Assembly (NCBI GenBank): GCA_027451665.1
Contig: DAIDIW010000002.1
Location: 1 to 46,250 of the forward strand
Origin: Candidatus Kaiserbacteria bacterium
Lineage (GTDB): Bacteria > Patescibacteriota > Minisyncoccia > Phycocordibacterales > Phycocordibacteraceae
Direction of reading: 5' to 3'
DNA: 46,250 bases
This document shows, piece after piece, positions 3,781-21,700 of the stretch. A program made the translations under genes and the position numbers. Position 1 is the first letter of the stretch, and each line of letters begins with the position of its first letter. Under the pieces are notes generated by a model. It worked only from the letters and a program-made list of their open reading frames with translations, had not been told where the DNA came from and made no database searches.

Positions 3781-3854
3781 GCCGGAGTAGCTCAGTCGGT
3801 CAGAGCAGCTGTTTTGTAAACAGCAGGTCGTGAGTTCGAATCTCACCTCCGGCT
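3781..3854 (+). tRNA. tRNA-Thr(UGU), CCA not encoded
   Basis: Acceptor gccggag/ctccggc, D-arm agctcagtcggtcagagc, anticodon stem gctgt/acagc with loop ttTGTaa, T-loop gttcgaat, discriminator U. Confidence 0.95.
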
Positions 3855-3868
3855 CTAACGGGGTAGAA

Positions 3869-16513: not shown

Positions 16514-18253
16514 TTATAGGTGTTCGACAATTTCCTTCGTAAGGCGCGTGCTGAATTCGTCGAGCGGGAGTCCTTCGAGTTTGCCGTGGTCGCGGCTCTC
16601 AGCGGTGACGGTCTTTGCGTCCATCTCCGCGTTCCCAAGGACGAGTACGTAGGGCAGCTTTTGCCTCTTGGCCTCGCGGATGCGTTTACCCAGGGAATCG
16701 TTGCTCGCATCAATCTCTGTGCGAATACCCGCTTCCTGCAGCTTCGCAGCGACTTCCTTGCCGTACGCATGATGTGCCTCGGCGATCGGCACGATGCGTA
16801 CCTGCTCGGGCGAGAGCCAGAGCGGGAGATTGCCGCCCGTGTGTTCGAGCATGACCGCGCTGAATCGCTCGATGCTTCCCATGATGGCGCAGTGGATCAT
16901 GACGATGCGCTCCTTTTCGCCCTTTTCGTTGACGCACGTGAGATCGAAGCGTTCAGGCAGGTTCATGTCGAGCTGGATAGTAGCCACCTGGTGCTCGCGC
17001 CCGAGAGAATCCGTGGCCATGAAGTCGAGCTTCGGCCCGTACATCGCCGCTTCGCCTGGCGCCTCGAAGTGGTCGGCGCCACGCTCCGAAGCTATCTCGC
17101 GCAGCGCGTTCTCGGCGTTCGCCCAGATCTCAGGCGTACCGAGATAGCGTTCCGGGGCTGCCGGATCATGGAAAGAGAGGCGGACGCGCAGCCTGAAGCC
17201 GAACGCACCGTAGAAGGTATCGATGATGTCCCAGATCTTGAAGAATTCTTCCTTCACCTGGATGTGGCGGCAGAAGACGTGGGAATCGTCCTGGGTGATC
17301 GAAAGCACGCGCGTGAGTCCGCCGAGTTCGCCGGATTGCTCGTCGCGATACACCATGGTCGTTTCCGCGTACCGCTGCGGCATCTCACGATAGGAATGCG
17401 GATGGCGATCGAAGATCTGCGTGTGATGCGGGCAGTTCATGGGCTTCACCGCGTACTCCTTGTCTTCGCGTGTCTCGATGCGGAAAAGCTCATCCGCGAA
17501 CTTCTCCCAATGGCCCGACGTCTCGTAGAGCGCGCGCTTCGTGAGATGCGGGATGGTAACGCGCGCATAGCCATGCCGTTCGCGGAGCTGCCAGACGAAT
17601 GCATCAAGCAGGTGCCGCATGAGCGCGCCTTTCGGAGTCCAGAGCGGCAAGCCGGGACCGACGAGCTCGGAGAAGGTGAACAGGTCAAGCTCCTTCCCGA
17701 GGAGTCGGTGGTCGCGCTTTTTCGCCTCTTCGCGCTGCGCTGTGAGTGCATCGAGCTCCTCCTTCGTGTCGAACGCGAGGCCGTAGATGCGCGTGAGCAT
17801 CGGCTTCGTCTCATCGCCGCGCCAGTAGGCGCCCGCGACGCGGTCGAGCGCGAAGGAATCCGGCGCGATGTCCTCGGCGGGGTGGGCCGTGTGGCCCCCG
17901 CGGCACAAATCGGTGAATCCGCCGCACGTGTAGAGCGTAATGGGCTCGCCGCGCCCAGAGATCTCCTCGATGAGCTCGAGCTTGTACGGATTGCCCTTGA
18001 AGACCTCGCGCGCCTTCTCCGCGGAAACCTCCTCATGCGTGAATTCCTTCCACTCGCCGAGTCGCTTCCGCATGGCCTTCTCAAACGTCACGAGATCGGC
18101 ATCGGAAACCTTCTGGTCGCCGAAATCGATATCGTAGTAGAAGCCGGTGTCGATGGCCGGACCCAAAGTGAGCTTTGCTTCGGGATAGGACTCGAGCACC
18201 GCCTGGGCGAGTAGGTGGGCGAGCGTATGTCGTTTGGCTTCGAGGGGATTCAT
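16514..18253 (-). CDS. thrS: Threonyl-tRNA synthetase (no N-terminal TGS domain)
   Basis: RHTLAHLLAQAV, DLCRGGH, RDHRLLGKELDLF, KPMNCPHH, YRDEQSG, AMYGPKLDF, IHCAIMGSIERF. Start moved to ATG 18253. Confidence 0.96.
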   Translation of the reverse strand: MNPLEAKRHTLAHLLAQAVLESYPEAKLTLGPAIDTGFYYDIDFGDQKVSDADLVTFEKAMRKRLGEWKEFTHEEVSAEKAREVFKGNPYKLELIEEISGRGEPITLYTCGGFTDLCRGGHTAHPAEDIAPDSFALDRVAGAYWRGDETKPMLTRIYGLAFDTKEELDALTAQREEAKKRDHRLLGKELDLFTFSELVGPGLPLWTPKGALMRHLLDAFVWQLRERHGYARVTIPHLTKRALYETSGHWEKFADELFRIETREDKEYAVKPMNCPHHTQIFDRHPHSYREMPQRYAETTMVYRDEQSGELGGLTRVLSITQDDSHVFCRHIQVKEEFFKIWDIIDTFYGAFGFRLRVRLSFHDPAAPERYLGTPEIWANAENALREIASERGADHFEAPGEAAMYGPKLDFMATDSLGREHQVATIQLDMNLPERFDLTCVNEKGEKERIVMIHCAIMGSIERFSAVMLEHTGGNLPLWLSPEQVRIVPIAEAHHAYGKEVAAKLQEAGIRTEIDASNDSLGKRIREAKRQKLPYVLVLGNAEMDAKTVTAESRDHGKLEGLPLDEFSTRLTKEIVEHL

Positions 18254-18271
18254 GGCAGGCGTGTATGTAAA

Positions 18272-18442
18272 GGTAATAAGAAAGCGCCCTGGCGAAGACG
18301 GAAACAGGAGTTCCGTCTTCGCCAGGGCGCTCAAGGCGCGGTTCCACCCGGCTTCTCGCGCGTGCGCGCGACTCGTTCGACTCGGATTAGGCCCTCGGGC
18401 GCCGGCGGCCTTCGGTTGGTAGCCGAAGCAATCTCCGATAGC
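18272..18442 (-). promoter_or_regulatory. T-box riboswitch with intrinsic terminator upstream of thrS
   Basis: Minus strand: specifier hairpin cttcgg-ctACCaa-ccgaag, Stem III tcgcgc/gcgcga, T-box AAGCCGGGTGGAACCGCG, antiterminator GCCGGG/CCUGGC + GCG/CGC, overlapping a 20-bp terminator (18284-18330) with a U-rich tail. Confidence 0.9.
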
Positions 18443-18446
18443 TCAC

Positions 18447-18474
18447 ATGCTAGCACCGGCGGGCGGGCGGTCAA
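18447..18474 (-). promoter_or_regulatory. Promoter of the thrS leader
   Basis: TTGACC-16 nt-TAGCAT with TG extension. Confidence 0.7.
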
Positions 18475-18480
18475 GCATGA

Positions 18481-18507
18481 ATACGGCGGCACTGCGTGCC
18501 GCCGTAT
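18481..18507 (-). terminator. Hairpin downstream of the 59-aa ORF
   Basis: atacggcggcac/gtgccgccgtat, a perfect 12-bp stem. Confidence 0.65.
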
Positions 18508-18516
18508 CGCACCTTC

Positions 18517-18696
18517 TCACGTGCGACGATCCTTGATGTCCTTGCGTTCACGCGTCAGATCGGCGATGCGTCTTAATAGGAAATTAGCGACCGGCTTGTT
18601 CTTACTTTCTATCGCTTGATCGCGCTGACGTTTCGCTGCATTAAGCCGCCTGTTAAGGTCGTCGAGTTCCCGGTCGGTGTCTGTCGCTTGGACCAT
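18517..18696 (-). CDS. 59-aa coiled-coil protein (UVR-motif-like), not in the ORF track
   Basis: SD AGAGGAG 6 nt before ATG; MVQATDTDRELDDLNRRLNAAKRQRDQAIESKNKPVANFLLRRIADLTRERKDIKDRRT*; terminator hairpin 10 nt after the stop. Confidence 0.7.
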   Translation of the reverse strand: MVQATDTDRELDDLNRRLNAAKRQRDQAIESKNKPVANFLLRRIADLTRERKDIKDRRT

Positions 18697-18736
18697 CGCT
18701 GACTCCTCTGTCGGTGTAGGTTCCGCTTCCCGTATA

Positions 18737-21700
18737 TCACAGCGGCTTTAGGTCGTCGAGGGCGAGCGAGGTCTCCCCGTTTCGATTCGAGACCGAACCT
18801 TTGATAAGCATGCACGACCCCGCCGTGAGCGACCCGCCATGCTCTTTGAAGAGTTTAGGGAACGCCACGGCTTCGATAGCGCCCGTCTTGTCCTCGAACT
18901 TTATGAAAGCCATCTTCTCTCCCTTCTTCGTGAGGATGGCGCGCACTTCGGCGACGAGCACCGGCAGGACGACCGGGAAGCCGGGCTTCGGATCCTCGAG
19001 TACATGTGAAATGGTATATTTCGATTTCTTGAGCCACTCCGGATGCGCGTCGAGCGGATGACCAGACACGTAGATGCCGAGGAGCTCCTTCTCCCATGCG
19101 AGCTTATCCGCAAGCGACACGTGCGCGCCGTCCGGCAAGGTAAGCGCCGGCGCCGTCATCGCAGCCCCGAACAGAGATCCTTGCGGCGCTTCGGCGGTCA
19201 TCTCGCGATGGTAGGCAAGCAGGGTCTCGATATTAGTGAGAAGCGTCCCGCGGCGCTCGAAGCGATCGAGTGCGCCGCACTTCACGAGGGATTCGAGCGA
19301 TTTGCGATTCAGGTGCCGGCTTCCCACGCGCGCGAGGAAGTCAGACAGCGTCGCATAGGGGCCGTGCGCGAGCCGCTCATCGAGGATCGCCTTCGCGATG
19401 CCGTCGCCGAAGTTCTTTATCGAGTTCAGGCCGAAGCGGATGCATTCCTGTTCGCCATCTTTCACGACCGTGAAATCGGTCCCGCTCTCGTTTACATCCG
19501 GCGGCAGCACCGGTATCTTCATACGATTCGCTTCGGCGACGAGCCGCGCGATCTCCTCGGTATTGCCGGCGTCCGCCGTCATGAGCGCAGCCATGTACTC
19601 GACCGGATAGTTCGCCTTCAGGTACGCGGTCTGATACGCGGTGCGGCCGTAGCTCGCTGCATGCGCCTTGCCGAACCCGTACGCCGCGAATGGTTCGATG
19701 AGCTCCCAGAGGTGGTTGGCGAGCTTCGGCGAGAGTTTCCCGTACTCGACGAACCCCTTGAGGAGCTTCTCCTTTTCCTTCTGCATGACTTCCGGGATTT
19801 TCTTTCCCATGGCTTTGCGGAGCTTATCCGCATCGAGCCAGGAGTAGCCGGCGAGCGTGATGGCCGTGAGCAACACGTCTTCCTGGTATACGATCACGCC
19901 GTAGGAGAGCTCGAGGTACTGCTTCATGCGTGGATCGAGATACGCGATGAGCTGCGGACGCTGCTTGCGTTCGATGTACTTCGGGATGTTCTCCATCGGG
20001 CCAGGCCGGTAGAGCGCTACCATCGCATTGATGTCGTGGATGGAGGTCGGCTTCAGCTCCTTGAGCCAACGAGTCATGCCGGAGCCGTTCAGCTGGAAGG
20101 TGCCGTACGTATCGCCCTTAGAGAGCATCTCGTAGGTCTTCTGGTCATCGAGTGGGATGCGCTCGATGTCGAGCTCGAGGCCGCGCGACTCCTTCACGCG
20201 CCGCACCGCGTCAGCGAGGATGGCGAGGTTCTTGATGCCGAGGAAGTCGAATTTCGTGAGCCCGACGCCGTCTTCGCCGACCGAGTACATGTCGTACTGG
20301 GTGATGAGCTTCCCCGTGCCTTTAGGGTCCGGCTGGATCGCTGTCCATTCGGCGATGGGCGTCGGCGCGATGACCACGCCCGCCGCATGGACGCCGACAT
20401 GGCGAACGCAGCCTTCGATCCGCTTCGCGAGATCGAGTATCTCCCGCGCGTCCTCGTCTTCGTCATAGAGGGCTTTCAGGTCCGGCTCCATCTCGAGCGC
20501 CTTATCGATCGTCATCGGGAAGCCCTGCGAGCCTATCGGGATGAGTTTCGCGATGCGATCGCCCGTGTTGTAGGAGTGCCCTAGGGCGCGCGCGACGTCG
20601 CGCACCGCCGCGCGCGCCATCATGGTGCCGAAGGTGCCGATTTGCGCGACGCGATCCTCGCCGTATTTCGAGCGCGCATACGCGATCACCTCGTCGCGGC
20701 GGTTGTCGGCGAAGTCCATATCAATATCCGGCGCTGACGGACGTTCGGGATTCAAGAACCGTTCGAACGGAATCTTGTACTCGAGCGGATCGATCTTCGT
20801 GATGCGCAGGAGATATGTCGTCATCGATCCGGCGACCGAGCCGCGGATGTTCGTATAGATATCGTGCTCGCGCGCATAGCGCACGAGGTCCTCCACGACG
20901 AGGAAGTATGCGGCGTACCCCTTGAAACTGATAATGCCAAGCTCGTACTCGAGCCGCTCGAGAACGTCCGCGCGGCCGTCGAGGCCGCGCGCGGCGATGC
21001 CCTCCATGCAGAGTGCCCGCAGCTGCTCGTCCGCTGTTACTCCCTCGGGGAGCTTGAATTCGGGAAAAGTGAATTTTCCGAGTACGAGTTCCACGCGGCA
21101 TCGATCGGCTATCGTGAGGGAATTATCGACGGCCTCCGGAATGTCCTTGAAGCGTTCGAGCGCTTGCGTCTCGGATATGAACGAGAAATCCTCCTGTTCG
21201 TTGCGTCCGTGGCCGCCCTGCTGGATGCGGCGCATGATCTCGGTTGCCTCGCGGTCCTCCGGCTCGAGGTAATAGACGTCGTGCTGCGCGACGAGCGCCG
21301 TGTCCGTCTCCTTCGCGAGCAAGATGAGCCGAGCCATGAGCTCCTCATGTCCGTCCACCTGCGGGTGGTGCGTTATCTCGAGGAACAGGTTGTCCTGTCC
21401 GAAGATGCTCTTGAATTCCGCGAGTGCGGCTTTCGCGCCCTCAGCGTCGCCCGCGCGGAGCGACTGCGAGACATCACTTGCGAACGAGGGAAGGAGCGCG
21501 ATCACGCCGTTCGCGTGCGCGCGCAGAAGCTCTTTGTCCATGCGCGGACGCTCGAAGAACCCTTCCGTCCAGCTTTTCGTCACAAGCGCGAGGAGATTCC
21601 GATACCCCTCGTTATTCTCCGCGAGCAGCACGATGCGCGAACGCTTCCGATCGAGGTCATGATCCTTCTCGAACCGGGAGCGCGGCGCAAGGTACGCGTC

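Follow-up and report, generated by a model that had tools for sequence, protein, structure and literature searches.

Reviews of T-box riboswitches call the platform that binds the tRNA elbow, by which the long Stem I captures tRNA quickly, essential for transcriptional T-boxes, and they assign an intermediate or ultrashort Stem I to translational T-boxes, in which a truncated Stem I has hardly any affinity for tRNA unless Stem II, with its S-turn, is present (PMC7583486). The closest described systems with a codon in an apical loop are the ultrashort ileS T-boxes of Mycobacterium and Nocardia farcinica (Sherwood et al. 2015, as summarised in PMC7583486 and 10.1101/2023.02.28.530422). A 2023 preprint describes this ultrashort class as translational, with all of its members regulating ileS (10.1101/2023.02.28.530422), in agreement with the statement in an earlier sequence-only reading of our locus that apical-loop specifiers are typical of the translational ileS T-boxes of Actinobacteria. 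The TBDB class II model was built on Actinobacteria only. Gene regulation in CPR bacteria is almost unstudied, and our literature search returned nothing on T-boxes in either CPR or Patescibacteria. The combination of an apical-loop Thr specifier with a terminator is undescribed in the T-box literature that we searched; a passing mention of terminator-bearing ultrashort leaders elsewhere is possible.

Here we analyse a thrS leader in a Kaiserbacteria-like CPR genome, within a 46,250-nucleotide stretch of contig DAIDIW010000002.1 (hereafter the window). The sequence-only reading had proposed that this leader is a Thr-sensing hybrid of an apical specifier and a terminator, and this proposal is supported by covariation, by the terminators of related leaders, and by the way in which the apical triplet tracks the downstream gene.

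The thrS locus and its leader

The host genome comprises 720 kb and is 97% complete, and the window has a G+C content of 60%. In a ThrS protein similarity search, the nearest proteins came from MAGs labelled Candidatus Kaiserbacteria, Parcubacteria or Paceibacterota. The N-terminus of the window's ThrRS begins directly at the editing/SAD region, for which there is a weak Pfam SAD match below the cut-off; an N-terminal TGS domain is absent from this protein. The parts of the leader span 18474–18274 on the minus strand and are listed below, together with the gene and one tRNA gene of the window. The counts given there refer to some 70 homologous leaders of thrS that a covariance model found among related Patescibacteria.

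18469–18474, minus strand: -35 hexamer TTGACC, found by consensus scan; relatives L008, L010 and L011 likewise have TTGAC(C/G/A)
18447–18455, minus strand: extended -10 element TG-C-TAGCAT, with TAGCAT at 18452–18447, a 16-nt spacer and the TG present
18434–18438, minus strand: 5′ strand of P1, UCGGA, the outer helix closing the decoding junction; pairs with 18386–18382
18429–18433, minus strand: junction strand GAUUG, found in 56 of 70 leaders; its final G is invariant (alignment A6)
18410–18428, minus strand: specifier hairpin of 19 nt, 6 bp CUUCGG/CCGAAG, with the 7-nt loop CUACCAA at 18422–18416
18417–18420, minus strand: specifier ACC (18420–18418, a Thr codon) and the purine A (18417); ACCA is invariant in 61/61 distinct leaders
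18391–18409, minus strand: variable junction segment GCCGCCGGCGCCCGAGGGC, 19 nt, G+C-rich, able to form one or two mini-hairpins
18387–18390, minus strand: junction strand CUAA, found in 62 of 65 leaders, with CCAA in the other 3; C, A and A are invariant (A6)
18382–18386, minus strand: 3′ strand of P1, UCCGA, assigned by pairing and covariation
18371–18381, minus strand: linker GUCGAACGAGU; the AACGAG of its 3′ part is purine-rich and flanks Stem III on the 5′ side
18357–18370, minus strand: Stem III, CGCGC-GCAC-GCGCG, which folds in every prediction and is followed by AGAA (18356–18353)
18321–18352, minus strand: antiterminator, with A1 formed by 18352–18347 and 18326–18321, and A2 by 18339–18336 and 18330–18327
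18282–18332, minus strand: intrinsic terminator hairpin of 20–23 bp; the 23-pair version has a predicted energy of -45.9 kcal/mol
18274–18283, minus strand: U tract UUUCUUAUUA after the terminator hairpin
16514–18253, minus strand: thrS, 580 aa including the start, with a class II core and an HGTP anticodon-binding domain; dnaE is the upstream gene
3781–3855, plus strand: tRNA-Thr(UGU) with U73, which shares the discriminator base and is not the isoacceptor complementary to ACC

The consensus scan identifies the sigma-70-like promoter as the sole promoter-like site in 18100–18800, where shuffled sequences lead one to expect 0.1, and from its position the transcript is predicted to start at about 18443–18439, just 5′ of P1. 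The start codon of thrS lies at 18253, and the U tract of the terminator 21 nt 5′ of it.

Directly before the thrS promoter there is a 12-bp G+C-rich hairpin, AUACGGCGGCAC-GCA-GUGCCGCCGUAU (window 18481–18507, minus strand), which has no U tract and could mark where the dnaE transcription unit ends. Between dnaE and this hairpin lies an ORF of 59 aa (18517–18696) that has no Pfam match.

Detection and distribution of related leaders

The Rfam T-box model RF00230 gave no match at its gathering score, none at E<=10 on the region, and none across the 720-kb genome; the sole matches in the Rfam search were microRNA-like, fell on the terminator hairpin and are put down to chance. The Rfam T-box search that the sequence-only reading had suggested as a check does not recover the element. 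A T-box 13-mer with at most one mismatch is expected 0.35 times per window. Since such a 13-mer is weak evidence in a window of 60% G+C and Rfam is silent, the case rests on comparison across genomes.

A pattern search of 60 related genomes yielded four thrS leaders of the same build. One of these is A+T-rich and belongs to another family, and in it the stem CUUCGG/CCGAAG is replaced by GUGG/CCAC around the same loop. A covariance model built from four leaders of the same genus, the window's own included, gave matches in 81 of 401 genomes from the same order and in 23 of a class-wide sample of 401, in searches with strict filters. Among 80 loci fetched by ThrS protein similarity, 16 carry the leader, and all 16 model matches in these loci (E<1e-5) lie on the coding strand upstream of thrS.

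The distribution is patchy. By exact motif, only 4 of the 37 genomes of the genus, our own included, carry the leader. The closest ThrS relatives (L110, L113 and L114, at 72–74% identity) have no thrS leader at all, and this, together with the count within the genus, suggests that the T-box has often been gained or lost within this genus. In several close relatives only about 30 nt separate dnaE and thrS; in L110, about 30 nt lie between thrS and the gene upstream of it, the end of which resembles the C-terminus of DnaE.

Other leaders of the class depart from this build. In L043 (G081:C1:207371-207455), from the same family and another genus, only Stem III and the antiterminator GCUCGG-UGGAACC-GCGGUUC... 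are left, a TTGACA/TATAGT promoter occupies the place of the decoding module, and no terminator hairpin precedes the ATG; by its sequence this leader looks like a decayed or rewired T-box. The thrS leaders of L054, L042, L050 and L059, from other families of the class, have the loops CUCACCA or CUUAACCAC, a GAUUGA...GA arrangement with which a K-turn at the base of the hairpin is conceivable, the T-box variant GAGUGGAACCGCC and short terminators. Across the leaders compared, the predicted decoding module is variable between CPR lineages.

The decoding module

For the analysis of covariation, 61 distinct leaders were cut to constructs of equal length (seven bases, GAUUG, 6+7+6, CUAA, seven bases), anchored on sequence motifs. 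In the specifier hairpin and P1 together, 95.4% of cells are paired, as compared with 66.9% in column shuffles and 27–37% when the partner is slid by 1–3 columns. Taken separately, the specifier hairpin is paired in 97% of cells and P1 in 93%, and compensatory double changes are seen in all 11 pairs, six of the hairpin and five of P1. The mean run of pairs in P1 is 4.6, against 2.58 +/- 0.12 in a null that exchanges 5′ strands among the sequences; the 3′ strand of P1 was placed by a best-anchor choice that slightly favours pairing, and the strand-swap null uses the same choice. RNAalifold independently predicts the specifier hairpin and A1, and in A1 five of the six pairs covary (58 leaders).

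The invariant bases in the 61 leaders are the last G of GAUUG, the ACCA of the loop, and the C, A and A of CUAA, which leaves ACC(A) as the sole invariant unpaired stretch of the decoding module. The loop reads CUACCAA in 49 of 70 leaders and always conforms to Y-N-ACC-A-(A/C/U). The segment between hairpin and CUAA is 15–57 nt long in most leaders and holds one or two small hairpins whose sequence is not conserved; a GNRA tetraloop in the last of these occurs in 8 of 66 leaders only and is not a family feature. The recurrence of the full arrangement with such strong covariation is, on the evidence of the alignments, decisively beyond chance, and the leader is confirmed by this comparison as a real, conserved T-box.

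These results bear on several claims of the sequence-only reading. The promoter that it had placed on the minus strand is present (TTGACC 18474–18469, TG, TAGCAT 18452–18447), as is its small hairpin with ACC, followed by A, in the terminal loop; so are Stem III, the GGG-UGGAACC-GCG antiterminator and the mutually exclusive 20-bp terminator, each of them on or beside the positions that it gave. The covariation across related genomes that it had proposed as a check favours the specifier hairpin, together with P1, and no alternative specifier loop is supported. The term "ultrashort Stem I" holds for the apical position of the specifier; it does not hold for the module as a whole, as the hairpin is not alone but sits in a multi-helix junction closed by P1 (18438–18434 with 18386–18382), a helix that had been overlooked. 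Nor is "AGUCGAACG" a conserved box: its first bases end P1, and the conserved part is the A-A-n-G-A-G 5′ of Stem III. Similar A-A-n-G-A-G-like motifs lie 5′ of Stem III in many relatives. In the window this flank reads GAACGAG, and a loose regular expression, which does not fix the exact RRRxG register, finds A..GAG-like motifs in 40 of 66 relatives.

The sequence from promoter to Stem III is fully accounted for, and it contains neither a long Stem I bearing a K-turn and a specifier internal loop with its S-turn nor a distal double T-loop platform. A Stem II with S-turn and IIA/B pseudoknot is likewise absent, the gap between hairpin and CUAA being filled only by the 19-nt G+C segment that is variable in relatives; this segment (18391–18409) has no S-turn-like motif. 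A K-turn at the base of the specifier hairpin was considered and rejected for this lineage, in which there are no tandem G-A/A-G pairs.

The conserved 5′-GAU(U)-3′/5′-UAA-3′ internal loop between P1 and the junction may resemble the UAA/GAN motif. By analogy, it may bend the decoding module as a K-turn does in classical leaders.

Stem III, antiterminator and terminator

The T-box core GGGUGGAACCGCG lies at 18349–18337, and the 14-mer CGGGUGGAACCGCG (18350–18337) agrees at 13 of 14 positions with the conserved T-box consensus AGGGUGGNACCGCG (PMC11297988). The antiterminator consists of A1 (GCCGGG/CCUGGC, 6 bp) and A2 (GCGC/GCGC, 4 bp), with the 7-nt bulge UGGAACC (18346–18340), of which UGGA is 18346–18343, and has a predicted energy of -13.4 kcal/mol. 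Relatives carry a hairpin of variable sequence at the position of Stem III.

The 5′ arm of the terminator reuses the 3′ strands of A2 and A1, so that it overlaps the antiterminator by 12 nt and the two helices are mutually exclusive. A scan for hairpins with a U-rich tail directly after them found the same arrangement in 67 of 72 leaders: a 17–24-bp hairpin of about -21 to -50 kcal/mol, overlapping the antiterminator by at least 8 nt. Most of the remaining five visibly have a terminator below the thresholds of the scan. The gap between the predicted energies of antiterminator and terminator fits a switch that would be off by default and kinetically controlled.

It could be asked whether the hairpin at 18332–18282 terminates transcription at all, or whether the leader is a translational T-box that sequesters the ribosome-binding site in the manner of the actinobacterial ultrashort ileS leaders. 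In the T-box literature that we searched, an apical-loop specifier is described for translational T-boxes only, and the U tract is interrupted (UUUCUUAUU), which counts against a working terminator. However, the hairpin stops 28 nt short of the ATG and leaves the stretch just 5′ of it uncovered, no evident Shine-Dalgarno-like sequence is found in that stretch, and the long GC-rich hairpin with a U-rich tail directly after it in 67 of 72 relatives is the signature of an intrinsic terminator. We therefore regard translational control as very unlikely and a terminator as the better description of this hairpin.

The bottom pair of A2, where a G-U wobble is described as the main steric (charge) sensor of T-boxes, is G-C in the window's leader; among the aligned relatives, G-C stands in 32 rows and G-U in 13, and the two bases are unpaired in a further 13. 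This G-C pair, the patchy distribution within the genus, and the remnant in L043, which belongs to the same family and retains Stem III and the antiterminator without Stem I or terminator, could all be read as signs of a decaying or constitutive relic, in which the T-box core is kept by descent, the leader does not respond to tRNA, and the terminator merely lowers thrS expression. Against such decay, the window's copy retains each base that is invariant in the family (G of GAUUG, ACCA, C-AA and the T-box core), along with all of the covarying pairs, and a constitutive terminator of -46 kcal/mol would be costly before an essential single-copy gene. A relic thus seems highly improbable to us, and we prefer to see the leader as a functional, tRNA-responsive element.

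The specifier and its tRNA

If the leader responds to tRNA-Thr, both the loop and the bulge should match that tRNA. The tRNA-Thr(GGU) gene of the genome lies on another contig (C1:185726-185801), with U73 and an encoded CCA, and all three tRNA-Thr genes of the genome (GGU, CGU and UGU) have U73, complementary to the A of UGGA. The sequence-only reading had matched UGGA to the U73 of the tRNA-Thr in the window; the U73 of that tRNA stands, but it is the UGU isoacceptor, and the cognate GGU tRNA is the one encoded elsewhere.

In other T-boxes of the same order, which also have a small apical loop, the apical triplet tracks the downstream gene. The leaders of AspRS-like (aspS) genes present GAC in the loop CUGACA, AUGACA or CAGACA, together with UGGC; a SerRS (serS) leader (L195, G714:C5) has AGC in a small loop, together with UGGC; an IleRS-like leader (L039, G272:C1) has AUC in the loop UCAUCA, with UGGU and a terminator; and GlyRS leaders have GGC. 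In our genome tRNA-Asp has G73 and tRNA-Ile has A73, as the UGGC and UGGU bulges would require. The sequence evidence for ACC as the specifier thus comes from three lines that agree: its invariance, the tRNA-Thr(GGU) with U73, and the link between triplet and gene elsewhere in the order.

The AspRS-like leaders (L001, L002, L005, L051, L056, L057, L197, L203, L205–L207 and others) are a second type of T-box, with a 4-bp hairpin and 6-nt loop, a Stem II-like GAAGAAAG...AGUAGA, a IIA/B-like element of the type CGGG-UAAGCCCG, UGGC and a terminator. Their architecture is that of the actinobacterial ultrashort T-boxes, yet with a terminator and for Asp. Genome G714 alone carries three T-boxes.

For Gly, the three tRNA genes of our genome (C1:64831-64904, C1:62695-62768 and C1:243532-243605) all have A73, the archaeal/eukaryotic type, in contrast to the bacterial U73, and UGGA, which implies U73, is the bulge in the minimal T-boxes of glyS type that other families of the class carry. 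Because our own tRNA-Gly genes have A73 and the glyS leaders belong to those other families, we do not claim a discriminator match for Gly.

Sequence-only calls of the specifier are often wrong in atypical T-boxes, and this is the reason to consider a specifier elsewhere in the leader, or a different tRNA as ligand. However, no single-stranded stretch of the decoding module other than ACCA is invariant, what remains of the junction being variable or conserved in non-Thr contexts too, and UGGA fits the U73 of tRNA-Thr; a different specifier or ligand is scarcely credible on these grounds.

A tRNA-like hairpin in front of thrS also brings to mind a protein operator, by which ThrRS would bind its own leader as in the autoregulation of E. 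coli thrS. The 7-nt loop has the form of an anticodon loop (Y-U-NNN-A-A), and the gene is thrS. The operator mimic bound by E. coli ThrRS displays the Thr anticodon. The loop in the window, in contrast, presents the Thr codon ACC and not a Thr anticodon (NGU), and a protein operator would leave the invariant UGGA bulge, its match with U73 and the pair of antiterminator and terminator unexplained. We consider an operator of this kind extremely unlikely and return to the reading of the loop as a codon offered to tRNA-Thr.

Proposed mechanism

On the analogy of studied T-boxes, the leader is very probably a transcription-attenuating T-box in which uncharged tRNA-Thr brings about antitermination into thrS. 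Transcription would begin a few bases before 18438, and the first 60 nt would fold into the decoding junction, made up of P1, the GAUUG and CUAA strands, the 6-bp hairpin and the short variable segment. The loop CUACCAA (pyrimidine, U, three presented bases, purine, A) would mimic a tRNA anticodon loop and offer ACC to the GGU anticodon of tRNA-Thr in a loop-loop contact. If the tRNA is uncharged, its 3′ end, U73-C-C-A, would pair with UGGA (18346–18343) and stabilize the weak antiterminator, stacked on Stem III, so that the polymerase would read into thrS. With a charged tRNA, or with none, the far stronger terminator would capture the 3′ strands of A2 and A1, and transcription would stop at the U tract. 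The sequence elements, their conservation and covariation, the exclusion of one helix by the other and the matching tRNA gene are observations, whereas tRNA binding, charge sensing and the transcriptional outcome are modelled on T-boxes that have been studied.

The tRNAs with complementary anticodons form unusually stable complexes. As the loop has the form of an anticodon loop (Y32-U33-NNN-R37-N38), its contact with tRNA-Thr could resemble these complexes, and in a module that has no Stem II, a contact of this kind may help to retain the tRNA. In weighing the T-box reading, we counted against it the missing elbow platform and Stem II S-turn, the lack of an RF00230 match, the G-C instead of G-U at the bottom of A2, the interrupted U tract and the patchy distribution.

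It is conceivable, at somewhat short of an even chance in our judgement, that the thrS leaders of Paceibacteria-type CPR constitute a separate structural class of T-box, defined by the P1-closed junction, the Y-U-ACC-A-A anticodon-loop mimic, and the GAU(U)/UAA loop taking over the architectural role of the K-turn or of Stem II. Were this so, two-point recognition of the tRNA, at the anticodon and the NCCA end, would suffice co-transcriptionally without contacts to the elbow or to Stem II, and the rule that transcriptional T-boxes require an elbow platform would be contradicted.

Implications

In the window's leader and its approximately 70 relatives, the smallest decoding hairpin goes together with a strong terminator and Stem II is missing, against the view taken in reviews. 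If these leaders work as predicted, they would represent the minimal RNA that reads both the identity and the charge of a tRNA during transcription, and they could serve as a compact scaffold for engineering. It would also follow that CPR bacteria place an aminoacyl-tRNA synthetase under feedback control by a riboswitch that is invisible to standard annotation.

Comparison with known T-box systems

With class I transcriptional T-boxes (RF00230; Bacillus subtilis tyrS, thrS and glyQS) the leader shares the T-box sequence with its 7-nt UGGNACC bulge between A1 and A2, a Stem III with a purine-rich 5′ flank and AA after it, a mutually exclusive intrinsic terminator, a codon that matches the regulated synthetase gene, and a match of the N of UGGN to the discriminator base. 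Unlike them, it has no long Stem I, K-turn, S-turn specifier internal loop or elbow platform of AG bay and distal loop, and neither Stem II nor a IIA/B pseudoknot, and its codon lies in the apical 7-nt loop of a junction closed by P1. Within class I, the glyQS T-boxes are likewise of transcriptional design without Stem II and IIA/B. However, glyQS has a long Stem I that carries the elbow platform and relies on a G-C-rich GGC-GCC duplex, whereas the thrS leader is platform-less and its codon ACC would form two G-C pairs and one A-U pair.

In the actinobacterial ultrashort ileS T-boxes, as far as the summaries cited above describe them, a short hairpin likewise carries the specifier in its terminal loop, an elbow platform is lacking, and the discriminator core is the same. 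In those summaries they respond to tRNA-Ile, regulate ileS by sequestering the Shine-Dalgarno sequence, and need both the S-turn of Stem II and the IIA/B pseudoknot; the leader described here serves thrS with ACC, has a terminator and not a sequestrator, and in place of Stem II has the junction of P1, GAUUG and CUAA. It differs from the E. coli-type thrS operator in that its loop displays the codon ACC and not an NGU anticodon. While failing the defining features of both T-box classes, the leader appears, from its sequence, to join the discriminator and expression platform of class I to the apical specifier of the ultrashort class.
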